A stretch of DNA of 42,521 nt from a virus: the IMG/VR virus record IMGVR_UViG_3300018083_000059, positions 1-42,521 of that record. One strand, given 5' to 3'. The position numbers were made by a program, and so were the translations under genes. The notes under the pieces were generated by a model, which was not told the DNA's origin, searched no databases, and worked only from the letters and a program-made list of their open reading frames with translations. Below are positions 1 to 34,688 of this stretch, piece after piece (position 1 is the first letter of the stretch; each line of letters starts with the position of its first letter).

Positions 1-75
1 GCGGTGCGGGTCGAGATCGAAACCATGATCCTTGAAGGCAATGCCGAAGTGCGGCCACGGCCCACCGCCGCCTGA
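1..75 (+). CDS. 3' end (partial, duplicated copy) of the small CDS annotated at 42231..42473
   Basis: In-frame continuation AVRVEIETMILEGNAEVRPRPTAA*, identical to 42399..42473. Confidence 0.5.
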   Translation, partial: AVRVEIETMILEGNAEVRPRPTAA

Positions 76-123
76 TCCCAGGAGTTTTCAATGCCACAAG
101 CTGATGACGCGCCATCTGGCAGC
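1..123. repeat. Terminal overlap copy 1 (identical to 42399-42521)
   Basis: Direct comparison of the first and last 123 nt. It spans the end of one CDS and the start of the scaffold CDS. Confidence 0.95.
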
Positions 124-1155
124 GCCAGCCCCCAGGTGTTAACTGTCAATCAAGCGGCGGATGCCATCGCCGGGCTGATGGATTCGAAGGAGCCAAAGAA
201 GGCTCCCGAGAGCAAACCGGAAGCCGACGAGGCACCGCAGTCAGAGGACGAAACGCCGTCCGAAGCCCCCGAGGGAGAGGAATCCGACGAGGACACTCCC
301 GAGCCCGAAGGGGACGACGAGGCGCCATCCGATGCAGCCGACGAAGACGAGGAAGCCACCGAGGAACTCGCCGAGGAATCCGCGCCGCCAGCCAAACTGA
401 AGTTGGATGATGGCACCGAGATCACCCTCGACGAGGCCAGGAAGGGCTACCTCCGCCAGTCGGATTACACCCGGAAGACGACGGAACTCGGCGAGAAACG
501 CCGGGAGGCCGAAGCCTTCCTTGCGCAGACCGCACAGATCGACCTTCACGCGCGGACCCTGGCCGAGCGGGCGATGCTGCTGATCCAGCAGATCGCGCCG
601 GAAAAGCCTGATCCGCGTCTCATCGAAACCGATCAATTCGCCTATCACGAGCAACGGGCCCGCTGGGAAGCCTGGAATGAATGGACGACGACACTCGAAT
701 CCGATCGTCGGAACCTCGAACACGCGGTCGTCCAGCGACACCAGCAGAACCAGCAGAACGTCGAGAGTGAGACCAAACGGCTGCGGCAGGAGGAAGCGCA
801 GAAGCTCCTCAAGCTGCGGCCGGAGCTGAAGGACCGGAAGAAGTTCGACGAGTTCCGCGGCAACCTGATGACGACGCTGCCCAAGGCGTTCGGCATTCAG
901 CCCGAGGAGATCGTCAACATCGCCGATCATCGGCTGCTGCTCGCCGCAGATGCGGCGGCCAGATATTACAAGCTCACCACCGCGGATCGTAAGAAGGCGA
1001 TTGAGAAAGGGAAGGATGCGCCGCCGGTGCAGACGCCCGGCAAGCGCACGTCGTCTGCTGAACAGCGGGCGAAGGTGAAGGGTCAGCATGTGCAGAGGCT
1101 GCGTCGGAGCGGCCGTGTGGAGGATGCCGCACGCGCCATTATGGATGACCTCTGA
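91..1155 (+). CDS. Putative scaffolding protein
   Basis: AGGAG SD before the ATG. Acidic D/E/P-rich N-terminus, helical charged remainder. Lies directly upstream of the major capsid gene. Confidence 0.55.
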   Translation: MPQADDAPSGSASPQVLTVNQAADAIAGLMDSKEPKKAPESKPEADEAPQSEDETPSEAPEGEESDEDTPEPEGDDEAPSDAADEDEEATEELAEESAPPAKLKLDDGTEITLDEARKGYLRQSDYTRKTTELGEKRREAEAFLAQTAQIDLHARTLAERAMLLIQQIAPEKPDPRLIETDQFAYHEQRARWEAWNEWTTTLESDRRNLEHAVVQRHQQNQQNVESETKRLRQEEAQKLLKLRPELKDRKKFDEFRGNLMTTLPKAFGIQPEEIVNIADHRLLLAADAAARYYKLTTADRKKAIEKGKDAPPVQTPGKRTSSAEQRAKVKGQHVQRLRRSGRVEDAARAIMDDL

Positions 1156-1167
1156 GGACACCCCTAA

Positions 1168-2130
1168 ATGACCCAGACTGTTGGCACTTATTCGACCTAT
1201 GACATCAAAGGCGCACGCGAGGATCTGCAGGACAAGATCTACATGATCTCGCCGACCGACACGCCGTTCCAGGCTAATGTCGGCACGCAAAGCGTCAAGG
1301 CCACGAAGCACGAATGGCAGACCGACGCGCTCGCCGCGGCGGCCAGCAACGCCTTCGTTGAAGGCGACGAGTTCTCCTATGCGGCGCCGGCGGCGACCGT
1401 CCGGGTGGGCAATTACACCCAGATCTCGCGGAAGACGTTCCTGATCACCGAGACCACCGAGGCGGTCGAGAAGGCCGGCCGCAAGAGCGAGGTGAGCTAC
1501 CAGCTCGCCAAGCAGGGTAAAGAAATAAAGCGGGACATCGAGACCGATCTCCTGGGCAAGAACGCCTCGGTGGCCGGCAATGACACCACCGCCCGCAAGA
1601 GTGGCGGCTTCGAGGCGTGGCTGACTTCCAACGATGCCCGCGGCGCCCTTGGCGTTCAGGGCGGCTACAATGTCGCCACTGGCGTTGTGGACACGGTGAC
1701 GGACGGCACGCAGCGCGCCTTCACCGAGGACCTGCTCAAGGACGCCCAGCAACTCGCCTTCACGAGCGGCGGCGAGCCTTCCATCCTGATGCTGGGGCCG
1801 TTCAATAAGCGTAAGTTCAGCGGCTTCACCGGCATTTCCGACCTGCGGAAGGATACGCCGGGCAAATCTCAGGCGACCATTATTGGTGCAGCGGACTACT
1901 ACACCGGAGATTTCGGGGGGCTGGCGGTGATAGTCAACCGGTTCCAGCGGGATCGCTCGGCGCTGCTGATCGATCCGGAGTATGCAAATATGGGTTGGCT
2001 TCGGCGCATGAAGCATGTGGAGCCGGCTATCATCGCCGACGCCGAGCCGCACGTGCTAATTTGTGAATGGACGCTAATAGTTGAGAATGAGGCAGCGCAC
2101 GCAATAGTTGCCGACCTTTTAACCACGTAG
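1168..2130 (+). CDS. Major capsid protein (HK97-fold type)
   Basis: 320 aa with high GC3. N-terminus (TYSTYDIKGAREDLQDKIYMISPTDTPF...) and overall pattern are typical of podovirus/P22-SU10-like coat families. Follows the scaffold gene. Confidence 0.85.
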   Translation: MTQTVGTYSTYDIKGAREDLQDKIYMISPTDTPFQANVGTQSVKATKHEWQTDALAAAASNAFVEGDEFSYAAPAATVRVGNYTQISRKTFLITETTEAVEKAGRKSEVSYQLAKQGKEIKRDIETDLLGKNASVAGNDTTARKSGGFEAWLTSNDARGALGVQGGYNVATGVVDTVTDGTQRAFTEDLLKDAQQLAFTSGGEPSILMLGPFNKRKFSGFTGISDLRKDTPGKSQATIIGAADYYTGDFGGLAVIVNRFQRDRSALLIDPEYANMGWLRRMKHVEPAIIADAEPHVLICEWTLIVENEAAHAIVADLLTT

Positions 2131-2155
2131 CGCTTCATTCAAGATATGCTATCAT

Positions 2156-2182
2156 CCGGGCCCTGCGCAAGGGAGGGCCCGG
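2156..2182 (+). promoter_or_regulatory. Perfect 9-bp hairpin sequestering the SD of the HNH gene
   Basis: CCGGGCCCT (2156-2164) pairs with AGGGCCCGG (2174-2182). GGGAGG SD at 2171-2176 and ATG at 2183 lie in or next to the right arm. Confidence 0.5.
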
Positions 2183-2773
2183 ATGGTTACTTGTTCGGTC
2201 AATGGGTGCGAGGGTCGCGTCAAGACGCGAGGCTTTTGCAACAAGCACTACATTCGGCTGCTGCGTCACGGCTCGCCGGATGTCCTCCTGTTCGTCCGTG
2301 GCTCGCTGGAGGAGCGGTTCTGGTTCCATGTCGTGAAGGGCAGGAACAAGAACGCCTGCTGGCAGTGGAAAGGCTATGTTTTGCCGACCGGGTACGCTCA
2401 GATCCAGATGGGCGGGCTAGGCTCGTCGCATATCCTTGTTCATCGTCTGAGCTACGAGATTCATTGCGGGCCGATCCCGAAGGGGATGATTGTCATGCAC
2501 AGTTGCGACAATCCCTCCTGCGCGAACCCGCGTCATCTCTCGTTAGGCACGCATCTTGATAATATGCAGGACATGTTCGCCAAGGGGCGTAACAACAATA
2601 CCGGCAGGCCGAAGGGCGAGGCGAACGGCAGGTCGGTCCTTGATGAAACCGCAGTTCGGTTTATCCGCGCCAATCAGACCATGACCTACAGGGCTATCGC
2701 GGAATCCCTCGGCGTTTCGCGTTCGGCGGTACGAGACGTCAAGGTCGGCCGCACCTGGACCCACATCACGTAA
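2183..2773 (+). CDS. HNH homing-type endonuclease (HNH_3-like core, N-terminal Cys cluster, C-terminal HTH)
   Basis: CxxxGC...GxCNKHY; HRLSYEIHCGPIPKGMIVMHSCDNPSCANPRHLSLGTHLDNMQD; C-terminal YRAIAESLGVSRSAVRDV. Paralog of 5062..5664. Confidence 0.85.
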   Translation: MVTCSVNGCEGRVKTRGFCNKHYIRLLRHGSPDVLLFVRGSLEERFWFHVVKGRNKNACWQWKGYVLPTGYAQIQMGGLGSSHILVHRLSYEIHCGPIPKGMIVMHSCDNPSCANPRHLSLGTHLDNMQDMFAKGRNNNTGRPKGEANGRSVLDETAVRFIRANQTMTYRAIAESLGVSRSAVRDVKVGRTWTHIT

Positions 2774-2819
2774 CCAGCGTTATGTCTTTGGCGGGGTAGC
2801 CACAATACCGCCAAGGGAA

Positions 2820-2858
2820 CCGCCGCTTCGGTGTCGTGGCCGGGGCGGCGGGCTTTTT
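2820..2858 (+). terminator. Putative rho-independent terminator
   Basis: CCGCCGC (2820-2826) pairs with GCGGCGG (2845-2851), followed by GC and TTTTT (2854-2858). The loop is rather large (18 nt). Confidence 0.45.
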
Positions 2859-2872
2859 CAAAGGGGACCGAC

Positions 2873-3331
2873 ATGGAAGAGAACATCGCGCACGTCGAGG
2901 ACGTGGCGGCGAAGCGGCGGGAGTCGTTGAAGCGTGCCCGAGCGGTCAGGGATGCCAACGTCGCGGCTCGCAAGGCCAATCCCCGCCAGCTCGATCTTGA
3001 GGAAGAAGCGCCAGCCCCAGCGCCGCGGGCTAAGCCGCCTGCGCAGCGAACGGTAAGGGTGCGGCTGCTCAAAGCGTATTGGCCGGGCGATGGGCGGGAG
3101 CATCCGGACGCGGCTAACCGCCTTTCCGGGCGCAAGCATCGGTTCGATGCCGGCGAGATCCTCGACCTGCCGGTGGCCGAGGCGCGGCTCCTGCTCGAGG
3201 AGCATGTGGAAAAGAGGACGGTCAGGGTGTGGGACGCCAAGATGCGGCGCTGGGTGGACCAGGACGACAGCCTGTACCGGCCGCCGGTTGCGGTGAGGGC
3301 CAACGCCTACAGCGTCGAGGACGATGCCTGA
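2873..3331 (+). CDS. Hypothetical protein (basic/charged)
   Basis: ATG at 2873 preceded by AAAGGGG. The track ORF start at 2831 lies inside the terminator hairpin, so the downstream ATG is preferred. Confidence 0.6.
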   Translation: MEENIAHVEDVAAKRRESLKRARAVRDANVAARKANPRQLDLEEEAPAPAPRAKPPAQRTVRVRLLKAYWPGDGREHPDAANRLSGRKHRFDAGEILDLPVAEARLLLEEHVEKRTVRVWDAKMRRWVDQDDSLYRPPVAVRANAYSVEDDA

Positions 3332-3951
3332 TGTTGCCTTTGAAGCTCAGCGATCTCCGCATGTTGCGGAAGGCCGTGGCTGAGGCTGGGTTGCTGCGTG
3401 AGGAGCATGCGCGCGTTGCTGCGGATGTGGTGGCGCATCGTTCCAATGTGCATCGCCTCATGGCGGCGAAGGAAAGGGTGGAAGCCGAATTGCGGGCAGT
3501 CGAGGCCAAGCGGCAAGCCGCTGAGGCATGGTTGCAGAAGGTCAATGCATCCACCGAGGCCAGGCTGCAGCAAGCCAAGGATGGGGAGGCCTCCTACCGC
3601 AAGTCGGTCGAATTGCTGAAGGCCGAGAACACCGATCTGGACAAGCGTCGGCAGGCGCTTCGTGAGGCGTATGCCCGCGACCTCGATGGCGATCCGATCA
3701 AGAACCTCAAGAAGGAACTGGCCTCGATGCAGGCCCGCATCGACCAGTGGAGGGCGAAAAACATCCAGTTGGCTTCTCAGGTCGATGTGCTGAAGCAGGC
3801 CAACGCCAGGGGGTCGAAAGCCCTTAACGAGATGACGGATCGATATGAGAATTTGAAGGACGAGGTCGAGCGACGAGGGACTGAGAAAGAGGCCAAGCTA
3901 AACCGCCGCCGTCACTTGTTCGACCGCATCATGTCGGGCGGGACCGTCTGA
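3331..3951 (+). CDS. Hypothetical coiled-coil protein
   Basis: TGATG stop/start overlap with the upstream gene. Heptad-rich charged sequence (AELRAVEAKRQAAEAWLQK..., DLDKRRQALREAY...). Confidence 0.6.
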   Translation: MLPLKLSDLRMLRKAVAEAGLLREEHARVAADVVAHRSNVHRLMAAKERVEAELRAVEAKRQAAEAWLQKVNASTEARLQQAKDGEASYRKSVELLKAENTDLDKRRQALREAYARDLDGDPIKNLKKELASMQARIDQWRAKNIQLASQVDVLKQANARGSKALNEMTDRYENLKDEVERRGTEKEAKLNRRRHLFDRIMSGGTV

Positions 3952-3953
3952 CA

Positions 3954-3974
3954 ATGGCCGGAATCCGCCATTTT
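3954..3974 (+). terminator. Weak terminator-like hairpin plus T4
   Basis: ATGG(C)CGG-aat-CCGCCAT followed by TTTT, directly after the stop at 3951. Confidence 0.35.
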
Positions 3975-4084
3975 GGCCGAAGGTCACTATTAGGCACTAA
4001 TTGGCATTAATTACCGACCGGGAATTAGTGACCGCGCTATGGCGCCTTATGGCGGCATATGGCGCTTGATTAAATCAGGAATGT
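3975..4084. promoter_or_regulatory. AT-rich structured intergenic region (candidate internal promoter or regulator binding array)
   Basis: GGTCACTA (3982) / TAGTGACC (4025) inverted repeat. Three TATGGCG copies at 4038, 4048 and 4058 (10-bp phasing). One inverted copy, CCGCCAT, at 3966. Confidence 0.4.
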
Positions 4085-4444
4085 ATGAACGACGAATATG
4101 CTGGCTGGATGCAGCGCTTCCGGCCCGGCGGCGACTATCGTTTTCACGGATGGGACGAGGTCCAGGGCATTCTATCGTGGCTGCATGTTCGTGATGATGG
4201 CGCCTGGGAGGTCGTGCAGCAGGCGATCTACGCGCCGAGCCTTTACGACATGAACAAGGAGGCCGAGGCCGACAGCAATGGGCAGCGGTTCGGCTCGGGC
4301 AAGCTGGTCGCGTCGATTCCGGTGAATATCGCCTATGCCACCGGCTTCATGGAGGCGGCCAAGGAGAAGGATCATCGCTGGATCGCCCGATTTCTAAATG
4401 ACCCAGCGCACAGATTCTTCAAACGCTTCGGAAGGAAACTCTGA
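4085..4444 (+). CDS. Hypothetical protein
   Basis: 119-aa ORF with good GC3. Stop overlaps the next start (TGATG). Confidence 0.6.
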   Translation: MNDEYAGWMQRFRPGGDYRFHGWDEVQGILSWLHVRDDGAWEVVQQAIYAPSLYDMNKEAEADSNGQRFGSGKLVASIPVNIAYATGFMEAAKEKDHRWIARFLNDPAHRFFKRFGRKL

Positions 4445-5052
4445 TGGCGTTCGGTAACTACACCGAGCTTAAGGCGACGATCGCCGAGTATGTCGGCCGC
4501 GACGATATCGACCCGCAGATCGCCGGCTTCATCGCGCTCGTCGAGACCGAGCTGAACCACGACGCCGATTTTCGCCTGGCGCAGATGCAATGGGAGGAGA
4601 CGCTGATCCTCGACCAGGACGGCGAGGCATCGCTGCCGCCTGATTTCCTTGAGCTGTATCAGGCGAGCATGGGCGGGGGCGCCAATCGGCGGGTGTTAAA
4701 ACTGGTCGACCGGTCGAACCCGTATGTGTATTGGAACTTCGGTATCACGGGGATCTGCATCGTCGACACCGGGACGATCACCGTGCCTGGCGCCGCCAAT
4801 GGGTCGGTCAACCTGCTCTATTACTCGGCCATCCCGCCGCTCAGCGACACCAATCCGACGAACTGGGTGCTGGCCGAGGCGCCGGCATTGTATTTGTATG
4901 GCGCGATAAAATCGTACACAGCTTTTAACAGAGAACCACAAGAACACATTGCGACTATTCAAATGTATGAGCAAGCTAAAGATAGCATAAAGGCTGCTGA
5001 CAGAGGCCGATGGCATTCAATGAGGGTTCGGATACCTAGTCCAACGCCCTAG
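4444..5052 (+). CDS. Putative tail tubular protein A / head-tail adaptor-like protein
   Basis: 202 aa. The N-terminus (MAFGNYTELKATIAEYVGRDDIDPQIAGFIALVETEL) recalls phage neck/adaptor families. Size and position match T7 gp11. Confidence 0.4.
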   Translation: MAFGNYTELKATIAEYVGRDDIDPQIAGFIALVETELNHDADFRLAQMQWEETLILDQDGEASLPPDFLELYQASMGGGANRRVLKLVDRSNPYVYWNFGITGICIVDTGTITVPGAANGSVNLLYYSAIPPLSDTNPTNWVLAEAPALYLYGAIKSYTAFNREPQEHIATIQMYEQAKDSIKAADRGRWHSMRVRIPSPTP

Positions 5053-5061
5053 GAGCGGTTG

Positions 5062-5664
5062 ATGGTTTGGAAAGACGTGACGTGTTCGGTCGGTGGATGC
5101 GATCGAGATGCCTATTGTCGGGGTCTATGCCAGAAGCATTATAACCGGCTCCACAAGACGGGTACGGTCACCGATCCGCCCCGGACCTATAAGCGCGGAT
5201 TGACGTTGGAACAGCGCCTGTGGGAGCACACCAAGGTCGGCGCTCCTGACGAATGCTGGGTTTGGGCTGGATCTACGAGCGAGAGCGGTTATGGCAAGCT
5301 GATTGACAGCTCTCAGGCCAAACGCCGACACCTCACGACCCATCGGGTGAGCTATGAAATCCACTATGGGCCGATCCCGCCTGGGGGGCTTGTTTGCCAC
5401 CACTGCGACAACCCTGCGTGTGTGAATCCGGCTCATCTTTTTGCCGGGATGGCCCGCGACAACTGTCTCGACATGATCGCCAAGGGGCGTGACCGGATTG
5501 TAGGCGAACGGCACAATCGCGCAAAGCTCAGAGCCGAAGATGTGAAGGCAATCCGTGCTATCGAGGGGATGTGTCAGAAGGACATCGCGGCGGCCTTTGG
5601 CATCAATCAGCCGCAGGTGTCGGCGATCCGGCGAGGCGCCGCTTGGCGGAGCCCGACGCCATGA
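5062..5664 (+). CDS. HNH homing-type endonuclease, second paralog
   Basis: AGGAG SD 6 nt before the ATG at 5062. CSVGGCDRDAYCRGLCQKHY; HRVSYEIHYGPIPPGGLVCHHCDNPACVNPAHLFAGMARDN; C-terminal HTH QKDIAAAFGINQPQVSAIRRG. Confidence 0.85.
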   Translation: MVWKDVTCSVGGCDRDAYCRGLCQKHYNRLHKTGTVTDPPRTYKRGLTLEQRLWEHTKVGAPDECWVWAGSTSESGYGKLIDSSQAKRRHLTTHRVSYEIHYGPIPPGGLVCHHCDNPACVNPAHLFAGMARDNCLDMIAKGRDRIVGERHNRAKLRAEDVKAIRAIEGMCQKDIAAAFGINQPQVSAIRRGAAWRSPTP

Positions 5665-5927
5665 CCAGCAGGCGAATCAACGTGAAGGAGGCGGCTGCAT
5701 ATCTTGGCGTCAGCAAGTCGGCGCTGGACAAGTGGCGCATGTCTCCGGAGGCCCGTGCTTATCAGCATCAGCATTATGGATGGGCGGCCACTGACGGGCC
5801 TCCATTTATCAGGATTGGCAGGCGGATCGTCTACGATACCGCCAACCTCGATCAGTGGATGGGGGTTGCACAAAACTCTGCACAAAACCCTGCACAAAAC
5901 CCTGACGTGTGGGACGTCGGGCCATGA
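5661..5927 (+). CDS. Excisionase/AlpA-type HTH DNA-binding protein
   Basis: ATGA overlap with the HNH stop. INVKEAAAYLGVSKSALDKWR...PPFIRIGRRIVYDTANLDQWM fits the HTH_17/MerR-like excisionase fold pattern. Confidence 0.65.
   Translation: MTSRRINVKEAAAYLGVSKSALDKWRMSPEARAYQHQHYGWAATDGPPFIRIGRRIVYDTANLDQWMGVAQNSAQNPAQNPDVWDVGP
5868..5903 (+). repeat. 12-bp tandem repeat x3 (GCACAAAACYCT)
   Basis: GCACAAAACTCT GCACAAAACCCT GCACAAAACCCT, encoding AQNS-AQNP-AQNP at the C-terminus of the HTH protein, 20 nt before the next start. Confidence 0.9.
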
Positions 5928-7390
5928 TGCCCTTCGGCCAGTTCGCCCCCGACGCGTTTTTGCTCGACAGCCAGCTGGCCGGGGATGCCCGCGGCGTCCT
6001 GCCGGGCGCCAATTCCTATCTGCCGTGGCCGAGCCTGGTCGCGGTTTCCAACCCGCTGCCGGCCCCCTGCTTCGGCTTCACCATGTTCCGCACCACGGCA
6101 GGCGGCTTTGGCGTCATCGCCGGCACGCAGACCAGGCTCTACCGCTACGACACCGCCGGGACGCCATGGACTGAGATCGGCAGCGGCTACAGTGTCCCGG
6201 TCGATGAGAAATGGAATTTCCAGCAGTTCGGCAACTTCATGCACATGACGAACGCCAGCAACGGGCTGCTGCAATATGACGTCGACCTTGGCGGTGCTGT
6301 CGTGCCGAATCCCGGATCGCCGCCGGCCGCCCGCTACATTGTCGCCTGGGGCGACCAGCTGATGCTTGGCGGGCTGACCAACTTCCCGAATTACATCTGG
6401 CTCAGCGGGCGCAACAATCCCGACTGGTGGGAGCTCGGCGAGATGGATTGCACACGGCAGCTCCTGCCGGATGGCGGCCGGGTCACCGGCTTGTCGCCGA
6501 TGGAAACCGGACTGATCTTCCAGGAAGGGATGGTGCGAAAAATCCTGCCGGTCGCCAATGACGCGATCTTCACCATCTCGAAGATCGAGCAATCCCGCGG
6601 CCTCGTTGCTCCGGACAGCCTCGTGATCCTGGCTAATGTCGCCTATTACCTCAGCGAAGAGGGCTGGATGGCGACCGATGGCTCGGGCGCGTCGAAGCGG
6701 ATCGGCGTCGATCGCATCGACGCCTGGTTCAAGGAAGGCTCCAACCAGTCGCGGCTTTCGGTCATCCAGGGGACCACCGACCCCGAGCGGTCGCGCATCT
6801 ACTGGATCATTCCAGGGCCCGGCAACGGCACCGACCAGACGCTTGACTTCATCCTCTGCTACGACGTCCAGGCCGACAAATGGACGGGCGCCGAGGTGCG
6901 GACGCAGGCGATCCAGGCGGCGCAGGTGCCGAGCTATACGATGGATAATCTGTCGGTACTGCTGGCCTCGATGGGCCTGGGCGACGATCTCGACCAGGTG
7001 CCGTTCAGCCTCGACAGCCGGTTTCTGGTTGCCGGCGGGACGACCATGGCGGCGTTCACCGCCGACAACCGCCTGGCGTTCTTCAACGGCCCGCCGATGA
7101 AGGCGATCATCGAGACTGCCGACTTTCAGCCGGTGCCAGGCAAGCGCGGCTTCGTCAAGGGCTGCCAGCCATTCACCGACGCGGCGGCGGCGACCATTGC
7201 GGTGGGCCGCAAGGAGCGGCCTTCCGATGCGACGGTATGGACGGCCGAGCGGCCGATCGATCGCCGCGGGTGGGCCTGGATGCGGTCGATGGGACGCATT
7301 CAGCGGGTGCGGATGACGATCCCGGCGGGGGCTGCATGGTCGCACGCGCAGGGCATAGAACTGGCCATGAAACCGGATGGAGCGAGATGA
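5924..7390 (+). CDS. Putative tail tubular protein B / nozzle-like virion protein
   Basis: 488 aa, ATGA overlap with the upstream stop. Beta-rich repetitive pattern (propeller-like). Position corresponds to T7 gp12. Confidence 0.4.
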   Translation: MMPFGQFAPDAFLLDSQLAGDARGVLPGANSYLPWPSLVAVSNPLPAPCFGFTMFRTTAGGFGVIAGTQTRLYRYDTAGTPWTEIGSGYSVPVDEKWNFQQFGNFMHMTNASNGLLQYDVDLGGAVVPNPGSPPAARYIVAWGDQLMLGGLTNFPNYIWLSGRNNPDWWELGEMDCTRQLLPDGGRVTGLSPMETGLIFQEGMVRKILPVANDAIFTISKIEQSRGLVAPDSLVILANVAYYLSEEGWMATDGSGASKRIGVDRIDAWFKEGSNQSRLSVIQGTTDPERSRIYWIIPGPGNGTDQTLDFILCYDVQADKWTGAEVRTQAIQAAQVPSYTMDNLSVLLASMGLGDDLDQVPFSLDSRFLVAGGTTMAAFTADNRLAFFNGPPMKAIIETADFQPVPGKRGFVKGCQPFTDAAAATIAVGRKERPSDATVWTAERPIDRRGWAWMRSMGRIQRVRMTIPAGAAWSHAQGIELAMKPDGAR

Positions 7391-7644
7391 CGCAGATTGT
7401 CAATCAGGGGATCAACACGTCGACCGAGGACGCGGTAAGGGATGTGCTCAAGGAGCGCATTGATCGCCTGGAGAAGCGCCCGGTGGTGCCGATGCCCGAG
7501 CGGCCGGCGCATCCGGCGAGCGGCCAGACCGTGGTGCCGCATGACTGGATCATCCGGGCCAGCATGCTCGCCGACGCGGTGCGCAGCGATAATGTCCCAT
7601 TGGCGAAGCTTGCGCTCAAGCATTGGGACGGTCGGGCTGACTAG
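7387..7644 (+). CDS. Hypothetical protein
   Basis: ATGA overlap with the upstream stop; 85 aa. Confidence 0.55.
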   Translation: MTQIVNQGINTSTEDAVRDVLKERIDRLEKRPVVPMPERPAHPASGQTVVPHDWIIRASMLADAVRSDNVPLAKLALKHWDGRAD

Positions 7645-7983
7645 ATGGCGGCGGTCTTCCCGGCGGCCAAATACCGGAGCGTCGGCGTCAACCTCACCGG
7701 GACGACCGTGACCACCATCATCACCGTGCCCGACGAGGCGGCCTATGACGTGGTGTGGATCGCCGTCGCCGACGCCACTGGCCATCCGGTCGACTGCCTG
7801 ATCGAGTGGGTCGACGACTCCGCGGCGACGAACTACGCCCTGCCCAAGGCGGCCACCGAGGGCTTCATCGAGTGCATGCCGTTGCGCCTGACGCATGGTG
7901 ACCAGCTTCAGGTGACCGGCGCCGCCGGCTCAGATGTTACGGTGACCTACATTGAATATCCGGTCAGACCGGCAGGCACATGA
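7645..7983 (+). CDS. Hypothetical small beta-rich virion-module protein
   Basis: 112 aa, starts directly after the upstream TAG, good GC3. Confidence 0.55.
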   Translation: MAAVFPAAKYRSVGVNLTGTTVTTIITVPDEAAYDVVWIAVADATGHPVDCLIEWVDDSAATNYALPKAATEGFIECMPLRLTHGDQLQVTGAAGSDVTVTYIEYPVRPAGT

Positions 7984-8392
7984 TCTCCAGGTCGGGTTCT
8001 ACCAGTACACCGACGTCGCGGCCGCCTGGCCGGCGCTCGCCGAGTGGATTGAGCTCGGATGCTCTCGGCTGTCAGGCGAACTGACGCCGGACTGGATTCG
8101 CGATCTCGCCATCAAGGGTCTTGCCTGGATCTTCGAGGTCCGCGGGGCTGACGGCAAGCCGCAGGGCGTCCTCGTCCTCGAGGTCCGCGACTGGCCTTCC
8201 GGCGAGCGGGTGGCGCAGATCCTCCTGCTTGCCGGCAAAGATATGTATCGCTGGCTGCACTTCCTCGACGACATCGAGCAGTTCGTGAAGCTTAACGGCA
8301 TCAGCCGGATTCGATTCGAGGGGCGCTTCGGCTGGGAGCGGGCGCTCAAGGATTACCGCCCGGTAAGGACGGTCATGGAAAAGGTGCTTTAG
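7952..8392 (+). CDS. Hypothetical protein (possible GNAT-like fold)
   Basis: Only a TTG start is available in frame (7952), overlapping the upstream gene by 32 nt. The strand-helix pattern VLVLEV...AQILLLAG...IEQFVKLNGISRIRFEGRFGWERAL is weakly acetyltransferase-like. Confidence 0.35.
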   Translation: MNIRSDRQAHDLQVGFYQYTDVAAAWPALAEWIELGCSRLSGELTPDWIRDLAIKGLAWIFEVRGADGKPQGVLVLEVRDWPSGERVAQILLLAGKDMYRWLHFLDDIEQFVKLNGISRIRFEGRFGWERALKDYRPVRTVMEKVL

Positions 8393-8394
8393 CT

Positions 8395-9783
8395 ATGGGC
8401 GGGACATCGACAACCACGCCAACCACGACGGAACCCTGGCAGCCGACGCAGGACGCGTTGATGAGCAATGTCGGGTCGGCGCAGGAACTGGTGAAGCAGG
8501 GGGTCGGCTATAACCCGGCCAGTTTCGACCTTCTGTACACGCCGCAGAACTGGTGGACGCAGCAGGGTCAGCAACAGCTTGGCAATGTCGCGGCGCGCGG
8601 CGACGAGCTCGGCCAGAACGCCTATGGGCAGAACAACGCCCTGGCGGCGTCGGGGGGCATCCAGAACTGGCAGCAGCCTTCCCTGCAGAGCCTCAGCAAT
8701 ATCGCTACCGGGGCCAACCGCATCGACACTGGCGACCTCTACCGACAGATGGCTGGTGGCGGTGGCATCGACGCCACCGGTATGTACAATCTCTACGGCC
8801 AGATCCAGGGCACGCCGGGCGCCAATCAGCAGAATCTCGGCGGCCTCGCATCTGGCAATGAGGGGATCAACTACAGCGGGCTGATGCCCCTTTATAACCA
8901 GGCTCAGCAACCGGGCGCGGCGCAGTTTGGCCTGACCGATATTGCCATGGGGAGACAGCTCGACCCCCAGAACGATCCCTATTACTCCAGGGCCCTTGAC
9001 ACCGAGAGCCAGAGGACCGCCGACCAGGCCAACCGGGCCTTTTCGAATATGGGTCGCTATGGCTCGGATGTTCATGAGCGTGGCGTTACCGAGGCGGTCG
9101 GCAATGTCCGCACCAATGCTCTCAACGAGCAGTACGGGCGCAACCAGGCTCTGCAGCAGCAGGCGGCCGGGCTGATTTCCAACGAACAGCTAGGGCGGCA
9201 GGCCCAGCAGGCAGGCATCCTCGGCCAGATCATCGGGGCGCAGCAGCAGAACATCGGCAACCGGATGGGCGCTTCCGGGCAGATCGCCAACGAGCAGCAG
9301 GGCAGGTTCGGCCAGCAGGCGGGGCTTCTCGGCCAGATCGCCGGGGCGCAGGGCCAGAACTTCGGCAACCAGCTGCAGGCCATCCAGGGCCTGACGCAGA
9401 CCCAGGGCGCCAATCTCGCCAACCAGGCGGGGGCGGCCCAAGGGATCAACAGCGCCGCCGGCCAGACGGCGAACATCCTCGGCAACCTCGGCCAGAACGC
9501 CTCGACGCTTTACGGCAACCTCTCCAACCCAGCCCGCCTCGCCCTGGAGACCGGCAAGATCGGCGAGGGCTACGACACGCAGATGCGGCAGTCGCTGCTG
9601 GACATCTACAACCAGGGGCAACAGGCGCCGTGGCAGCGGCTGTCGGCGGCGAATGCGATTTACGGGCTGGGCGGCTCGCTGGGCCAGTTCAACACCAAGA
9701 CATCGACGGTGCCGGGCAATGCCAACGGTGTCGGCGACATGCTCGGCAGCCTGTTCAAGCTGGCGCCGATGTTCGGGCTGTGA
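8395..9783 (+). CDS. Putative internal virion protein, Q/G/N-rich
   Basis: 462 aa. Degenerate repeats such as QQAGILGQIIGAQQQNIGN / QQAGLLGQIAGAQGQNFGN. Position is equivalent to the T7 gp14-type ejection proteins. Confidence 0.45.
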   Translation: MGGTSTTTPTTTEPWQPTQDALMSNVGSAQELVKQGVGYNPASFDLLYTPQNWWTQQGQQQLGNVAARGDELGQNAYGQNNALAASGGIQNWQQPSLQSLSNIATGANRIDTGDLYRQMAGGGGIDATGMYNLYGQIQGTPGANQQNLGGLASGNEGINYSGLMPLYNQAQQPGAAQFGLTDIAMGRQLDPQNDPYYSRALDTESQRTADQANRAFSNMGRYGSDVHERGVTEAVGNVRTNALNEQYGRNQALQQQAAGLISNEQLGRQAQQAGILGQIIGAQQQNIGNRMGASGQIANEQQGRFGQQAGLLGQIAGAQGQNFGNQLQAIQGLTQTQGANLANQAGAAQGINSAAGQTANILGNLGQNASTLYGNLSNPARLALETGKIGEGYDTQMRQSLLDIYNQGQQAPWQRLSAANAIYGLGGSLGQFNTKTSTVPGNANGVGDMLGSLFKLAPMFGL

Positions 9784-22871: not shown

Positions 22872-23209
22872 CCGGCGGTCGGGCCTCTCGCATGAAGGGA
22901 AGTCGTAGAGAGCTTCAAGCCGTCCGTGTCATGCAGACGGCCGGCCTTGCCGCCGAGAAAACGCCCTTGTCGGGGTCTGTCGGCGGGAAATTTGCCGGCG
23001 ATATCTCCTGCCCGATCCTTGGCGTCGACCGGCGCTTCGAGGTCAAGGCCCGCGCCTCCGACTTCAGCCTGATCAGACGCTGGTTGGACGAGAATTACGG
23101 CCTGATCCTCAAGACCGATCGCAAACCAACCCTGGTCGTCATGCGGCTCGATGACTTCGCCGAGCTGGCCTATGGCGCCGACCGCAAGCGCCTGGAGGCC
23201 GCAGAATAA
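22868..23209 (+). CDS. Putative Holliday-junction-resolvase-like PD-(D/E)XK endonuclease
   Basis: KGSRRELQAVRVMQTAGLAAEKTPLSGS...GDISCPILGVDRRFEVKAR resembles archaeal Hjc-like phage resolvases. ATGA coupled to cro. Confidence 0.5.
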   Translation: MTGGRASRMKGSRRELQAVRVMQTAGLAAEKTPLSGSVGGKFAGDISCPILGVDRRFEVKARASDFSLIRRWLDENYGLILKTDRKPTLVVMRLDDFAELAYGADRKRLEAAE

Positions 23210-23775
23210 TGGACGCGATCGTCAAGAACGCCCATCTGTGGCGGCGCCATCCCGAAGACTTCTACGTCGAGCCAGGTTGGGTTTCGTGGAGGTTATTCGA
23301 CGTTGAACAGTTCAAGGGGGCAATATGGGATCCAGCTTGCGGAATAGGACGGATCGTCGATTCAGCAAGTCGGAATCATCATTATCTTTCATTCGGGTCT
23401 GACATCGTTAAGCGGTCGGACTGGTGTGAGAACGAAATAGATTTCCTCTCTGCCCCTGTTCAAGAGTGGCACGAGATCGTCAGCAATCCACCTTTCGGCA
23501 TCGCCGACAAATTCATCAAGCACGCCCTTGCCGCTCGCAAGGTGGCGATGCTCCTCCCGACGAAATGGATGAATAGCGCTGCCCGCGGCAAGTGGCTTGA
23601 GACCACGCCGCTGAAGCAAGTGTTGCTGCTTGCGCCACGGCCGTCGATGCCGCCTGGCCCGGTGATCGAGGCCGGCGAGAAGCCCGGCAACGGCACCGTC
23701 GACTTTGCCTGGTTCGTGTGGGAGCGCGGCTATATCGGCGCACCGACCATCGGGTGGCTGAGGAGAGACGAATGA
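23209..23775 (+). CDS. Small DNA N6-adenine methyltransferase
   Basis: IWDPACGIGRI (SAM motif I) and SNPPFGIADKF (motif IV, NPPF). 188 aa. The N-terminal half is visibly lower in GC. Confidence 0.75.
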   Translation: MDAIVKNAHLWRRHPEDFYVEPGWVSWRLFDVEQFKGAIWDPACGIGRIVDSASRNHHYLSFGSDIVKRSDWCENEIDFLSAPVQEWHEIVSNPPFGIADKFIKHALAARKVAMLLPTKWMNSAARGKWLETTPLKQVLLLAPRPSMPPGPVIEAGEKPGNGTVDFAWFVWERGYIGAPTIGWLRRDE

Positions 23776-25912: not shown

Positions 25913-28030
25913 GTGCCGGCAATCTCCTTTCATCCTGAATTTGCCGGCCCGTCTGACTGGGCCGCCATGTACCGCCGATGCGGCCTGCAGGTGGTCCCGG
26001 CGCCATACCCGATGCGCGCTGCCGGCGACAAGCGCCCGGCGCTGCCGGAATGGCGAACCCTGCACGAGGCCCTGGTCACCGACACGGTGTTCGAGCGCTG
26101 GTACGCCTACGGTACCGGCACGTACCACAAGAACCCCAATATGGGCGTCATCTGCGGCCATGCCTCGGACAACCTCATGGTCATCGACGCCGACCAGTAC
26201 AAGTCGGCGACCTCGGGCAACTGGTGGCAGGACGTCATCAGGGTCCATAACCACGGCATCGACCCTGACACCTGGCGGGCGAAGACCGGCGGCGGCGGTA
26301 CGCATCGATTCTTCAAGGCGCCGATGCATTGGCGCGTGCCGACCAACAGCACCGCCCTCGAGGTCGACATCCGTGGCCAGGGCGGCTTTGCCATGCTGCC
26401 GCCCAGCAAGCACCTAAGCGGCAATGATTACGAGTGGATCGACGGCTTCGAGCCGTGGACCACCGAACTCGCCGAAGCGCCGCAATGGCTCCTGGATGCG
26501 ATCGACGAGCTGGTCGCAAACCATGCCGGCGCCGGCACTGGCGGGACCGCACGTACCACCCATCACGGCCCCGACTTCGATGCCCTCGGTTTCCGGATCA
26601 ACGGCCGCGAACAGTATATGACGCAAATGGTCTGGGCGGCCTGCGTCAACCTGTGGCGCGACAGCCCGATCATGCCGCATCCGGCCGACCTCGACCGCCT
26701 GATGCGAGAGGCATACGCGGTTTATGAGCTCCAGGTTGGAACCCGGCTGAAAGGCGTCGACAGGGATGCCGGCCTGGAGCAGGAGGGACGCGGCATCTCG
26801 ATGTTCGCCGTCAAGTGGCGACGAGCTCTGTCGAAGTGGGAAGGCAAGATCGCCGAGGACGGCGCCATCCCATCACCGAACCAGCCACCGCCAGGACAGA
26901 CGCCACCGGGCGCCCCACCGCCACCGCCTGGATCACAGTCGGGATGGTCTGCAGGGCAGTTCAGTGGCACTTCAGACCCGATCCCTGTCGGCAGCATCAA
27001 AGGCATCCCCAAGCCGCGAAAGTGGCTGGTGCAGGAATGGATACCAGCCGGCGCTATTACCGCGCTCTACGGCGACGGCGGTACCGGCAAGACCCTCCTC
27101 GGCCAGCAGCTTGTCTATGCAGGCGACATCGGCGCCATGTGGCTCGGCATCGAGATGCCAATAACGCGCAGCCTCGCTGTCCTTTGCGAGGACGATATGG
27201 ATGAACTCCATCGCCGCCATGACGATATCAAGGCCGACCTTGGCCATGCGATCGGCAATCCCTTCACAAGATCATGGGTCTGGCCGCGGGTTGGCAGTGA
27301 CAACATCCTGGTGACGTTCGACCGCGACAACCGGCCGAACGTTTCGGCCTTTTTCTTCCTGATCAAAAAGCACGTCCTCGACAAGCAGATAGAGCTTTTG
27401 GTGCTCGACACCGTCGCCGACTTCTTCGGCGGTAATGAGAACATCAAGGCGCAGGTTAACTACTTCATCAAGGTGATGTGCGCCGACCTTATCGTTGAAG
27501 CCCACGCCGCCGGCTTCACGCTGACCGTGGTGCTGCTGGCACATCCATCACAAGCCGGCATGAACACCGGCGCCGGCACCGCCGGTTCGGTTGGATGGAA
27601 TGCCGGCGTCAGGTCGCGCCTTTATCTCACCCGCGATCCGAACGGCGGCGCCAATGACCGAATCCTCGCCCGGATGAAATCCAACTACGCGGCAGCTGGC
27701 GATGACAAGACCATGAATCTGGTCTGGGCGGATGGCGTCCTCAAGCCACGCCTGCCTGGCGCCGTGGCGTGGCCCGATCGCCATACCTGCCAGCAGATCC
27801 TCGACGCCATCGCCGAAGCCTGGAATTCGGGAAAGCCGTGGTCGAGCGCGCCACGATCGAAAACTGAAAACCGATACGCCGCCGAACGCATCTCGGAGAA
27901 GTTCCCGGTGCGCATCAGGCAGGCCGAGATGATGATCAAAACATGGATCAAAAACGAGGTGCTCAGCACCGAAATTGCGTCTTCGCATAAAAACCTCAGG
28001 GGACTGAAGGTAATTGGCAAAATCGATTGA
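25913..28030 (+). CDS. Bifunctional primase-polymerase / RecA-like (AAA_25, RepA/P4-alpha-type) helicase
   Basis: GTG start after GAAGGA. Prim-pol motifs LMVIDAD, GGGGTHRFF, VDIRGQGGFAMLPPSKH..YEW. Walker A YGDGGTGKT, then LVLDT (Walker B-like). Confidence 0.85.
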   Translation: MPAISFHPEFAGPSDWAAMYRRCGLQVVPAPYPMRAAGDKRPALPEWRTLHEALVTDTVFERWYAYGTGTYHKNPNMGVICGHASDNLMVIDADQYKSATSGNWWQDVIRVHNHGIDPDTWRAKTGGGGTHRFFKAPMHWRVPTNSTALEVDIRGQGGFAMLPPSKHLSGNDYEWIDGFEPWTTELAEAPQWLLDAIDELVANHAGAGTGGTARTTHHGPDFDALGFRINGREQYMTQMVWAACVNLWRDSPIMPHPADLDRLMREAYAVYELQVGTRLKGVDRDAGLEQEGRGISMFAVKWRRALSKWEGKIAEDGAIPSPNQPPPGQTPPGAPPPPPGSQSGWSAGQFSGTSDPIPVGSIKGIPKPRKWLVQEWIPAGAITALYGDGGTGKTLLGQQLVYAGDIGAMWLGIEMPITRSLAVLCEDDMDELHRRHDDIKADLGHAIGNPFTRSWVWPRVGSDNILVTFDRDNRPNVSAFFFLIKKHVLDKQIELLVLDTVADFFGGNENIKAQVNYFIKVMCADLIVEAHAAGFTLTVVLLAHPSQAGMNTGAGTAGSVGWNAGVRSRLYLTRDPNGGANDRILARMKSNYAAAGDDKTMNLVWADGVLKPRLPGAVAWPDRHTCQQILDAIAEAWNSGKPWSSAPRSKTENRYAAERISEKFPVRIRQAEMMIKTWIKNEVLSTEIASSHKNLRGLKVIGKID

Positions 28031-28050
28031 TTATTCAATTAGTTATGGGC

Positions 28051-28162
28051 TTGCGAAGACGCCTGCTAAGACGCTTGCGAAGACGTCTGCGAAGACGCGA
28101 AGACGGTATCCTCAAACCCGCAGAAACCCTTGCGAAGACGTTGCGAAGACATGTGCGAAGAC
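28051..28162. repeat. Iteron array (TGCGAAGAC), candidate origin of replication
   Basis: Copies at 28052, 28076, 28088, 28131, 28142, 28154. Variant TGCTAAGAC at 28064, truncated GCGAAGAC at 28097. The first four are 12-bp phased. Lies directly after the primase/helicase stop. Confidence 0.6.
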
Positions 28163-28164
28163 AT

Positions 28165-28214
28165 CCCCCCCCGTACCCCCCCCCCGCACGCGAGGGAGGC
28201 TTGGGGCCTCCTCG
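28165..28214. other. C8-GTA-C10 homopolymer pair followed by a GC hairpin and an A7 tract
   Basis: CCCCCCCC (28165-72) GTA CCCCCCCCCC (28176-85). CGAGG(G)AGGC / GCCTCCTCG stem at 28191-28214. AAAAAAA at 28222-28. Confidence 0.8.
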
Positions 28215-28283
28215 CGGCGGCAAAAAAAGAACCCCACCAAACCGCCCCGGCCACAACGCCGTGGACAACGTCAGGAGGACGCA

Positions 28284-28685
28284 TTGCGCTACCGGGATTG
28301 CATGATCGTTTGGACGCCGATCAATTCGTTCGTCTGGAACCACGACGAGAAGAAAACAGTCCCCAACCCTCGGCGAGGAGAAATCAGGGTTGGGCTTCAT
28401 CCCCATGAAACCGATTCATTAGCAGGCTACGACAAGAGCACAGGTGCCTGCCATTGGGACCGGAAAAGCATGACGCCATTGATGCAGGTCGCGTTCATGC
28501 TCGTCGACTTCTACGAGATCATCACTCATGACGGCCTGAACCCGCGGAAGGTCCACAAAGCATTCCTGGCGATCGACGAATTCCGCTGGGTCATCTCACC
28601 CGACATGGAAGGCGCCGAACCGGCCCCGGAAGAGTGGGCGAAGCAGATGAGGCTTGCCGGTTATGTCGAGGCCCAGCATGCCTAA
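28284..28685 (+). CDS. Hypothetical protein
   Basis: TTG at 28284 lies 5 nt after a perfect AGGAGG; the alternative start is the ATG at 28302. The upstream part of track ORF 28014.. only translates the iterons. Confidence 0.5.
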   Translation: MRYRDCMIVWTPINSFVWNHDEKKTVPNPRRGEIRVGLHPHETDSLAGYDKSTGACHWDRKSMTPLMQVAFMLVDFYEIITHDGLNPRKVHKAFLAIDEFRWVISPDMEGAEPAPEEWAKQMRLAGYVEAQHA

Positions 28686-30180: not shown

Positions 30181-30413
30181 ATTCTACCGCGCGATCGCTA
30201 GTCCATCGATCGTCTGTTCACATCAAGGATATGGCCCTGTCCGTGCAGGTGAAGCGCATGCTTAGGGATAGCGGATTGCGAACCGCCGCAGGCGTGAGAA
30301 ACAAGACAGAAGATCAACTACTCCGTCTGCCAGGCTTCGGTCAGCGACGCCTAAGCGAGGTCAGGGACGCTCTCGCGGAACTGGGTTTCACCCTCAATCT
30401 GAACGGGCAATAA
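30177..30413 (+). CDS. RNA polymerase alpha-subunit C-terminal-domain-like (helix-hairpin-helix) protein
   Basis: DMALSVQVKRMLRDSGLRTAAGVRNKTEDQLLRLPGFGQRRLSEVRDALAELGFTL follows the alpha-CTD pattern L.LSVR..N.L...gI.....L...t...L......G.kSl.Ei...L...G..L. Confidence 0.55.
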   Translation: MNSTARSLVHRSSVHIKDMALSVQVKRMLRDSGLRTAAGVRNKTEDQLLRLPGFGQRRLSEVRDALAELGFTLNLNGQ

Positions 30414-30826
30414 TGGCCGGCGTCAAAGGTAAAGGCGGCCAGAAACCGGCAGTAACATTCTCAATCAAGATCATGGAAACCATCTGTGAGCGCGTCGCGG
30501 TTGGAGATAGCTTGAACCAAATCTGTAAAGAGACAGGGTTCCCAAGCGAAGCTTCAGTTAGGCAGTGGATTACTTTAGACCGCGAAGGATGTGCCTCGAA
30601 ATACGCGCGTGCGCGCGAACAACAGATGGAGTGGTGGGCGGATGATCTTATCAGGATCGCCGATTCAGCCATGAATGACTATGAGAGCGTTAACGCCGTG
30701 AGGGTCGCCGTCGATGCTCGAAAATGGGCGATGTCGAAGCTGGCGCCGAAGCGGTTCGGTGACCGCATCGAGCATGCCGGCGGGGTTACAATCCGCCACG
30801 AAGACGACCTGGCGAAGCTGAAATGA
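30413..30826 (+). CDS. terS: Terminase small subunit
   Basis: ICERVAVGDSLNQICKETGFPSEASVRQWI...YARAREQQMEWWADDLIRIAD...VDARKWAMSKLAPKRFGD is the classic phage TerS HTH plus oligomerisation pattern. Confidence 0.8.
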   Translation: MAGVKGKGGQKPAVTFSIKIMETICERVAVGDSLNQICKETGFPSEASVRQWITLDREGCASKYARAREQQMEWWADDLIRIADSAMNDYESVNAVRVAVDARKWAMSKLAPKRFGDRIEHAGGVTIRHEDDLAKLK

Positions 30827-32488: not shown

Positions 32489-33348
32489 CCACGCGGCTCT
32501 TGGTTGGCGATTGCCGGCAGAAGCTCGCGGAACTGGCCGACGAGAGCGTCCACTGCATCGTTACGAGCCCTCCCTACTACGGGCTTCGGGATTATGGCGT
32601 CGACGGGCAGATCGGCCTTGAGGCGACGCCCGAGGCGTATGTCGCCGAACTGGTGGCGGTGTTCCGCGAATGCCGAAGGGTGCTGAGGAGCGACGGGACA
32701 CTTTGGTGCAATTTGGGCGACTCTTATGCGGCGAAGAACCTGATCGGCATTCCGTGGCTGGTGGCCTTCGCCCTCCGCGCCGATGGCTGGTGGCTGCGGC
32801 AGGACATCATCTGGGCCAAGCCGAACCCGATGCCGGAAAGTGTTCTTGACCGGTGTACGAAGAGCCACGAATACTTGTTCATGCTCTCCAAAAACAGCAG
32901 TTATTATTACGACAATGATGCAGTGAGAGAGCCTTATAGCGAAAAATCAATCGGCAGATATGAGTACGAATTTCAGGGCACTGCGCCGACGTGCAATCAG
33001 GTTGGAGGAGATGTCGGTCGTCGAGAACGTGAACGTGGCATTCGCCCACCTAACCCACTTGGGAGGAATCGTCGCTCTGTTTGGACCATAAATAGCGAGC
33101 CGTTTAACGACGCGCATTTCGCCACCTTTCCGCCGGCACTGGTCGAACCCTGCATCAAGGCGGGCAGCAGGGTTGGCGATACGATCTTGGACCCCTTCGC
33201 CGGCGCCGGCACCACCGGCCTTGTCGCCGATCGCCTCGGCCGCAACGCCGTACTGATCGAGCTGAACCCGGCCTATGCCGGGATGATGCGCGATCGCATC
33301 GTCAACGACGCGCCGCTGTTCGCTGAGGTCATGGACGCCGCCGAATGA
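32476..33348 (+). CDS. Beta-class N4-cytosine/N6-adenine DNA methyltransferase (N6_N4_Mtase family)
   Basis: CIVTSPPYYGLRDY (motif IV, SPPY) near the N-terminus and ILDPFAGAGTTGLVA (motif I) near the C-terminus. Start is the ATG at 32476 or the GTG at 32485. Confidence 0.85.
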   Translation: MGRVTTRLLVGDCRQKLAELADESVHCIVTSPPYYGLRDYGVDGQIGLEATPEAYVAELVAVFRECRRVLRSDGTLWCNLGDSYAAKNLIGIPWLVAFALRADGWWLRQDIIWAKPNPMPESVLDRCTKSHEYLFMLSKNSSYYYDNDAVREPYSEKSIGRYEYEFQGTAPTCNQVGGDVGRRERERGIRPPNPLGRNRRSVWTINSEPFNDAHFATFPPALVEPCIKAGSRVGDTILDPFAGAGTTGLVADRLGRNAVLIELNPAYAGMMRDRIVNDAPLFAEVMDAAE

Positions 33349-34495: not shown

Positions 34496-34688
34496 TCTCG
34501 CGGTGCTCGAGGATGGGCTGAGGAAAATAAAGGAATTGAACTGGTCTACCGTGCATGGTGGACGCGAGCGTGACGTGAGAGAGCAGATTGATCGGCTTGT
34601 CTATGAACTTCTAAAGATGACCGCCGATGCTGGCGAGGGGGCACAGCCGCGAAACCTCCAAGCGCTTACTTGGCCTCCTTATGCCTGA
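34476..34688 (+). CDS. Hypothetical protein whose first 20 nt duplicate the portal gene start
   Basis: Starts ATGCCTGACGCCGCCCGCCG (MPDAARR), as does the portal gene. The centre is lower in GC. The stop overlaps the portal ATG region by 8 nt. Confidence 0.45.
   Translation: MPDAARRLAVLEDGLRKIKELNWSTVHGGRERDVREQIDRLVYELLKMTADAGEGAQPRNLQALTWPPYA

Follow-up and report, generated by a model that had tools for sequence, protein, structure and literature searches.

A free-standing HNH endonuclease cassette that probably replaced the end of an adaptor gene in an SU10-like podophage

The IMG/VR virus record IMGVR_UViG_3300018083_000059, analysed here over its full length of 42,521 nucleotides (nt) and referred to as the window, carries an HNH endonuclease gene, HNH2, at the end of a gene for a virion adaptor protein. 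Judged by gene content, the window represents most of the genome of an SU10-like podophage with 63% GC, since it holds SU10-type genes for the adaptor (4444-5052), the major capsid protein (1168-2130) and the portal (34627-37035); a small terminase is encoded at 30413-30826. The original prediction for this locus, which was made without database searches, had spoken of a "gp11-like" essential virion gene with a recoded end, followed by a homing nuclease. Pfam refines the first of these terms to an SU10-type adaptor, and the nature of the gene end and its relationship to the nuclease are the subject of this report.

HNH2 begins at ATG 5062, 9 nt past the adaptor stop codon TAG at 5050-5052, and its Shine-Dalgarno motif overlaps that stop (Table 1). 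The encoded protein matches the Pfam family HNH_3 (PF13392) and several PHROG HNH-endonuclease families, with E values down to 5e-33, and it combines this core with an N-terminal Cys/KHY cluster and weak C-terminal matches to the helix-turn-helix (HTH) families HTH_23 and HTH_37. The predicted position and three-part architecture of the gene were thus recovered, the HTH part through weak matches. In an alignment of 35 sequences the catalytic and zinc residues H113, C115, D116, C120, N122, H125 and N134 are invariant, and all are present in HNH2. Its AlphaFold model has a pLDDT of 91, and the best match of the model in the Protein Data Bank (PDB) is I-HmuI (1u3e), with a probability of 0.99 and a similarity that is weak overall (Foldseek E 0.011, TM 0.33-0.38), followed by I-PpoI; a sequence search of the PDB gave no match. 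No relative of HNH2 was found nearer than 53% identity over 46% of the query, the best among viral contigs being 46%, so that the source of the gene cannot be traced. Carriage within an intron or intein was rejected, as a TAG stop and a Shine-Dalgarno motif precede the ATG and no ribozyme was matched. An assignment to the terminase-associated HNH proteins of cos-packaging phages was also rejected, HNH2 lying far from the terminase and portal genes and being absent in close relatives.

The end of the adaptor gene departs sharply in composition from the remainder of its open reading frame (ORF). Positions 4888-5052 contain 72 G or C in 165 nt (43.6%), against 62.6% in the 444 nt upstream and 63.0% in the whole window, in agreement with the original count of 72/165 and its estimate of well over 60% upstream. 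This is the lowest-GC 165-nt region of the window, the minimum of 43.0% belonging to the stretch that starts at 4887; across the 42,521 bases such stretches have a mean GC of 63% with a standard deviation of 5.4%, and a fraction of 7e-5 is this low. GC at third codon positions (GC3) drops from 0.85 to 0.39-0.40 at codon 148, GC at first positions (GC1) is also lower in the tail (0.47 vs 0.56-0.65), and codons of the tail have a mean relative frequency of 0.26, compared with 0.49 for those of the gene body. The maximum-likelihood change-point falls at 4885, and a three-segment likelihood fit to third positions returns GC3 values of 0.85, 0.40 and 0.70 separated by breaks at 4885 and 5128, giving a low-GC3 tract that extends from 4885 to about 5128 and crosses into the first ~22 codons of HNH2. 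These codons have a GC3 of 0.45, where the same stretch in 26 other genes has a mean of 0.81 and a minimum of 0.55; the body of HNH2 stands at 0.70.

A search of 5.8 billion proteins yielded just five adaptor alleles, with 78-82% identity, and the DNA recovered for adaptor relatives (L001/L002, L004, L005 and L006) is treated here as four close relatives. A nuclease gene follows the adaptor in the window and is absent from that position in all four, which supports HNH2 as a presence/absence insertion. The adaptor and the next virion gene overlap, stop codon with ATG, in the junction ACGCCATGATGCC of L001 and L004, and are separated by spacers of 86 and 67 nt in L005 and L006. The adaptor tails of the four relatives have a GC of 59-62% and a GC3 of 0.73-0.80; the low-GC tail is therefore not a trait of the adaptor family, as the original prediction had allowed it might be. 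HNH2 is accordingly best read as a free-standing homing-endonuclease gene, because it is absent at this site in relatives, adjoins a donor-type tract and is associated with neither intron nor intein.

Comparison with these relatives divides the adaptor gene into two parts. Over codons 1-147 the window is 80-83% identical to the relatives in nucleotides, with different codons at 25-32% of positions encoding the same amino acid; the relatives among themselves show 75-84% and 26-43%, so that up to codon 147 the divergence of the window equals that within the group. Over codons 148-202 the nucleotide identity of the window to the relatives falls to 59-64% and the proportion of differing same-amino-acid codons rises to 62-71%, where the relatives among themselves remain at 76-86% and 25-45%. 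Amino acid identity of the tail to the relatives is 69-80%. The switch is abrupt, codon 147 being native-like and codon 148 already not. The comparative alignment that had been proposed as a check thus places the synonymous differences in the tail, at 25 of 40 same-amino-acid codons compared with 33 of 120 upstream (Fisher p = 1.2e-4).

The changes are not confined to silent sites. Synonymous changes in the tail run from GC to AT in 20 cases and from AT to GC in 3, and between 11 and 17 of the 55 residues are replaced, at sites that are uniform among the four relatives. Many codons have changed at two or all three positions, among them His CAC to Ser TCG, Gly GGC to Gln CAA, Ser TCC to AGC and Arg CGC to AGA. 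Nucleotide diversity among the four nuclease-free relatives is only 0.03-0.12 over the equivalent of 4909-4985, compared with ~0.2-0.3 elsewhere, and it is in this block that the window departs most from them (33-43% of positions); elsewhere its distance matches the relatives' own diversity. The "recoded flank" of the original prediction therefore stands as a compositionally foreign, sharply bounded and synonymously saturated run of 55 codons. We find the word "recoded" too narrow, because residues, multi-position codons, GC1 and ~22 codons of HNH2 are altered as well.

The opposite end of the nuclease gene preserves a trace of what was displaced. The HNH2 ORF ends in GAGCCCGACGCCATGA, a sequence that is found once in the window and matches the final 16 nt of the L004 and L005 adaptor genes exactly. 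Thirty-odd members of the HNH2 family share the C-terminus W-x-H-[V/I/L]-x; HNH2 instead ends in W-R-S-P-T-P, of which SPTP is the adaptor's own. The ATG of HNH2 at 5062 and that of the adaptor at 4444 share a reading frame, and HNH2 closes with the native codons for SPTP and the native stop. Because HNH2 has the native adaptor gene's final 16 nt as its end and is in frame with the adaptor, the cassette lies inside the adaptor ORF, and not "behind" the gene as first described. Through the same in-frame fusion the native ATGA, where stop and downstream start overlap, is kept. Read from left to right, the locus consists of native codons 1-147, surrogate codons 148-202 with TAG, a Shine-Dalgarno motif, HNH2, and the last native codons with their stop.

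Table 1. Coordinates of the features in and around the adaptor-HNH2 region of the window
Feature	Positions	Strand	Evidence or remark
HNH1, distant paralog behind the capsid gene	2183..2773	+	HNH_3 50.6 bits
Native part of the adaptor gene, codons 1-147	4444..4884	+	Pfam SU10_adaptor PF24175, E 5e-22; GC3 0.85
Surrogate low-GC adaptor C-terminal segment, codons 148-202 and TAG	4885..5052	+	GC 44%, GC3 0.39; 59-64% nt identity to relatives
Block with near-invariant counterpart in nuclease-free relatives; candidate recognition/cleavage region	4909..4985	+	Diversity comparison
Shine-Dalgarno GGAG overlapping the adaptor stop (TAGGAG), 6 nt ahead of the HNH2 ATG	5052..5055	+	Read from the sequence
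HNH2, predicted free-standing HNH_3 homing-endonuclease gene, in the adaptor's reading frame	5062..5664	+	HNH_3 36.8 bits (cut-off 24.8); PHROG HNH families
Low-GC3 5' part of HNH2, ~22 codons, running on from the surrogate tail	5062..5127	+	Change-point model, GC3 0.45
Relic of the native adaptor 3' end, GAGCCCGACGCCATGA (SPTP and stop, ATGA stop/start overlap), now the end of the HNH2 ORF	5649..5664	+	
Small excisionase-like (HTH_17) ORF separating HNH2 from the next virion gene	5661..5927	+	Pfam HTH_17 29.8 bits (cut-off 27)
Downstream virion structural gene, phrog_3287	5924..7390	+	PHROG match E 2e-50; 91-92% amino acid identity to relatives

What the sequences show directly is the anatomy of the locus, its presence/absence polymorphism, its sharp boundaries of composition and divergence and the relic of the native end, and we regard the divergent tail as a real and well-resolved footprint of homing type. 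The explanation we consider probable is that a free-standing HNH_3 (I-HmuI-like) homing-endonuclease cassette replaced the native end of the adaptor gene with a foreign surrogate. A cassette of ~760 bp (4885-5648) would have taken the place of the last ~50 codons of the native gene from inside the ORF, bringing with it an AT-richer foreign C-terminus, with its own TAG, that keeps the essential gene whole. The target of HNH2, for cutting or nicking, would be the native tail in relatives that lack the nuclease, probably within their near-invariant equivalent of 4909-4985, and on co-infection the break would be repaired from the carrier genome, with surrogate tail and nuclease gene copied together. 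The left crossover may have occurred in the conserved stretch coding for NPTNWVLAEAP just before 4885. Being ~40% different in nucleotides, the surrogate tail would give the carrier immunity to its own enzyme and would leave target and nuclease gene without homology that could separate them. The low GC would then go back to a source richer in AT, from which the tail and the first ~22 HNH2 codons came, and HNH2 would be translated from the late structural mRNA by coupling or re-initiation.

Several results weigh against this explanation. A phmmer search of 1.84 billion representatives with the tail alone brought up no donor and nothing beyond its own cluster, an exact 23-mer of the tail had no match in viral contigs, a metagenome scan with the adaptor alignment gave only L089, which is the same as L004, and a genome scan for a donor found nothing; a donor scan by way of the downstream virion gene led only to the same contigs again. 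The association is drawn from one carrier allele and four without the nuclease. GC3 in the body of HNH2 is 0.70 and not 0.40, so that a single, simple origin of composition does not hold for tail and nuclease together. At 48 other HNH_3 loci with an upstream ORF on the same strand the median drop in GC3 of the tail is only 0.03, and a carried low-GC tail is therefore not a general trait of the HNH_3 family. The locus that had seemed the strongest second case of a low-GC tail (L053) proved an artefact, its upstream "ORF" being a non-coding frame opposite a minus-strand gene.

How the tail came to differ can also be explained without a donor. The phage's own tail may have diverged in place after the nuclease arrived, through selection against cleavage or homology and/or error-prone repair of repeated nicks, any shift away from a GC3-rich original lowering the GC. 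Such a history would suit the peak of divergence over the very block that is most conserved in nuclease-free relatives, as well as the failure to find a donor; two-fold codons ending in G or C have only an A- or T-ending synonym, and GC to AT accounts for 20 of 28 synonymous changes. Independent evolution after insertion has also been given, as the less parsimonious account, for two of four fungal gene hybrids (PMC3630166). It is harder to reconcile with a left boundary sharp to one codon, or with the 11-17 replaced residues, and we consider divergence in place quite unlikely. Import from a distant, AT-richer homolog is favoured because synonymous sites in the tail are saturated while the rest of the gene is not, because codons such as those for Ser and Arg changed at two or three positions, because GC1 shifted too, and because the low-GC3 tract enters 22 codons of HNH2 that have no native counterpart from which to differ. 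Ordinary phage mosaicism, in which a patch recombined from a divergent relative happens to end beside an unrelated and independently inserted HNH gene, draws on the known mosaicism of phage structural genes, on the synonymous divergence of the window's capsid gene from that of L002, which also rises over its last 100 codons, and on the lack of a general tail effect in the HNH_3 family. We nevertheless judge it improbable: the boundary of the patch lies inside HNH2 rather than at the gene junction, the fusion of HNH2 to the native last 16 nt implies that one event also removed the native tail, and native tails are retained in four of four nuclease-free relatives.

The tail could alternatively serve the expression of HNH2, its AT-rich, rare-codon sequence providing a promoter, a leader free of structure, or a ramp that slows ribosomes for translational coupling. 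The overlap of the Shine-Dalgarno motif with the adaptor stop, with the ATG 6 nt further on, the low codon frequencies of the tail, and the absence at HNH2 of the hairpin found at HNH1 would all be in keeping with such a function. Nothing more specific was detected, however: no sigma-70-like promoter was found in 4400-6000, the RNA structure of 4885-5100 around the HNH2 start is not distinguished from shuffles (z = -0.26), and an Rfam search of 1-9000 returned no match. The 5-bp stem that had been thought to touch the Shine-Dalgarno motif does have its two arms (CCTAG 5035-5039 and CTAGG 5049-5053), but the region holding them folds no better than shuffles (z = +0.81). Since 165 nt plus 66 nt far exceeds a translation-initiation region, and since amino acid replacements and the native-end fusion would be left unexplained, an expression element is a very improbable reason for the tail. 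An assembly chimera joining reads of two related phages has to be considered for any metagenomic contig such as the window; as the same adaptor and adaptor-HNH2 region occurs on 7 contigs in ENA and Logan data sets, six of them of 20-50 kb, and two contigs (L087 and L088) are identical to the window, its likelihood is close to negligible.

The cassette, as we interpret it, is a phage example of a gene-end-replacing nuclease, a kind of gene invasion that is already known and not a new system. The closest architectural parallel is offered by the mobile-ORF (mORF) gene hybrids of fungal mitochondria, described for atp6 of Allomyces macrogynus and for atp6, atp9, cox2 and nad3 of Glomus sp. (PMC3630166). 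In these, as here, the ORF of an endonuclease is accompanied by a foreign version of the host gene's C-terminus, which takes the place of the native one, and the insert is in phase with the host gene; the inserted C-terminus encodes a similar protein and is ~64-81% identical to the native one in nucleotides, compared with 59-64% in the phage, and in Glomus atp9 the native 3' end has been wholly replaced, much as in the phage adaptor (PMC3630166). The host gene here is a phage virion gene rather than a mitochondrial respiratory gene, and the nuclease belongs to HNH_3 and not to LAGLIDADG or GIY-YIG. The phage cassette also keeps only 16 nt of the native end, with no full downstream duplicate, its surrogate has its own stop so that no fusion protein is predicted, and the foreign piece is distinct in base composition as well.

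Among phage nucleases, the T-even enzymes SegF, SegG and MobE, known for "intronless homing" and localized marker exclusion, resemble HNH2 in lacking an intron or intein and in lying beside conserved essential genes (PMC2988022, PMC2790892). The Seg and Mob enzymes of T4 cleave the nuclease-free allele some way from the insertion site; after resection of the break, repair templated by the carrier co-converts the flank (PMC2988022, PMC2790892). The target of HNH2 would likewise be expected in the neighbouring gene and distant from the insertion, with co-conversion giving hybrid alleles. The T-even nuclease genes are intergenic, whereas the predicted HNH2 cassette sits within an ORF, provides a complete substitute for the C-terminus and makes use of the native stop. 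I-HmuI, the HNH nicking endonuclease of an SPO1 intron (PDB 1u3e), has the same order of an HNH_3 core and a C-terminal helix-turn-helix as HNH2, but it is intron-encoded and does not have the additional N-terminal Cys/KHY module. HNH_3 genes of ICP1 and other phages are found near essential or structural genes (PMC10448857), and a placement beside capsid or tail genes is common to them and the nuclease genes of the window.

We have also considered a phage counterpart of the mitochondrial mobile ORF in which the nuclease carries a portable "immunity exon" kept maximally unlike the native target, an idea we hold to be unlikely. If it were true, the carrier would be uncuttable and no homology would be left by which nuclease and immunity could be split, the AT-richness would be mostly a by-product of selection away from a GC3-rich target and not of donor composition, and the relic ends in L006 and L005 would mark a recurrent cycle of insertion and loss at the adaptor junction.

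The window holds only two HNH_3 genes, HNH2 and HNH1 (Table 1), and their presence behind two virion genes had been taken to suggest repeated homing or target switching within one genome. The two proteins align over their full length, including the N-terminal Cys/KHY cluster, with 41% identity, and the HNH protein encoded at the capsid site of L002 (IMGVR_UViG_3300037070_000778; positions 1880-2464) is 51% identical to HNH1 within flanks that are ~95% identical. Because of these low identities within-genome target switching is unsupported; HNH1 and HNH2 appear to be old paralogs, and independent acquisition or turnover is more likely. The comparison with L002 points to nuclease turnover at a fixed site behind the capsid gene, and same-site cognate nucleases of related phages can indeed diverge widely (PMC10448857). 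The capsid gene itself shows a weaker footprint, synonymous differences between the window and L002 rising from ~0.2 to 0.5-0.7 from codon 221 on.

The intergenic region downstream of the capsid-site nuclease, with terminator-like GC-rich stems, is near-identical in the window and L002. The Shine-Dalgarno motif and ATG of HNH1 lie inside a 14-bp hairpin (2151-2187; -31.2 kcal/mol, z = -4.8), and L002 has an equivalent hairpin of other sequence at ~1847-1884 (-27.2 kcal/mol, z = -4.6); HNH2 has no comparable structure. This arrangement suggests a conserved translational repression of the capsid-site nuclease. In L002 the capsid gene is further interrupted after codon 243 by an insert of ~745 nt (837-1582) that encodes a LAGLIDADG protein (ORF 927-1592), and the joined exons give a full capsid protein of 320 amino acids. 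The last nucleotides, T for exon 1 and G for the insert, are those of group I introns, but the match to Rfam Intron_gpI (17.4 bits, E 0.52) is far below threshold. In a distant relative, Sulfitobacter phage phiGT1 (MT584811.1, 7688-13260), whose adaptor is 31% identical, the same module contains two HNH_3 genes, one directly after the capsid gene and one directly before the adaptor homolog. Nuclease genes seem to occupy the capsid and adaptor positions recurrently in this phage group.

The HTH_17 ORF that follows HNH2 is a separate accessory insertion. It starts and ends in a CCATGA overlap, as the native junction does, and carries three 12-nt repeats GCACAAAACYCT near its end (5868-5903). L001 and L004 do not have this ORF, and L005 retains only an in-frame remnant of 29 codons (2250-2340) comprising the start, the repeats and DVWDVGP with the stop. 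L006 presents another variant at 1030-1120, where the adaptor has its own diverged end, GGGGPTP and stop (CCA ACC CCT TGA), and 55 nt past it stands GACGCCATGATG, the native end joined to the start of the next gene; this is the end-duplication signature of the window without a nuclease gene. When the L006 spacer was compared with HNH cassettes as a possible decayed HNH gene, similarity was not above shuffles.

Elsewhere in the window, the second-lowest GC island (27879-28152, 44%) spans the end of a Prim-Pol/AAA_25 primase-helicase gene (25913-28030) and the start of the next ORF (28014-28685; 223 amino acids, GC3 0.66), which is without a match in Pfam or PHROG; the island may mark a further mosaic junction. 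Low-GC stretches also occur in or near DNA methyltransferase genes, at 32795-33054 for an N6_N4_Mtase gene (32329-33348) and at 23209-23775 (phrog_799), as expected of acquired accessory genes. A nuclease was sought in the islands at 27879-28152 and 32795-33054 and none was found.

The adaptor-HNH2 region offers a clean natural case of a selfish nuclease entering an essential phage virion gene without breaking it, in which the left edge of the insert can be read, together with the substitute gene end that came with it, the nuclease, and the 16 nt that remain of the end it displaced. It links phage homing to the gene-hybrid architecture of fungal mitochondria, and it names both a candidate target, the equivalent of 4909-4985 in nuclease-free relatives, and a natural, putatively resistant allele. 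For annotation, a low-GC gene tail beside an HNH gene can be taken as a marker of a mosaic junction. Nucleases that cut essential genes of a competitor can decide the outcome of co-infection (PMC11620839), which makes it possible that the adaptor-HNH2 region influences how these phages of soil or water compete.

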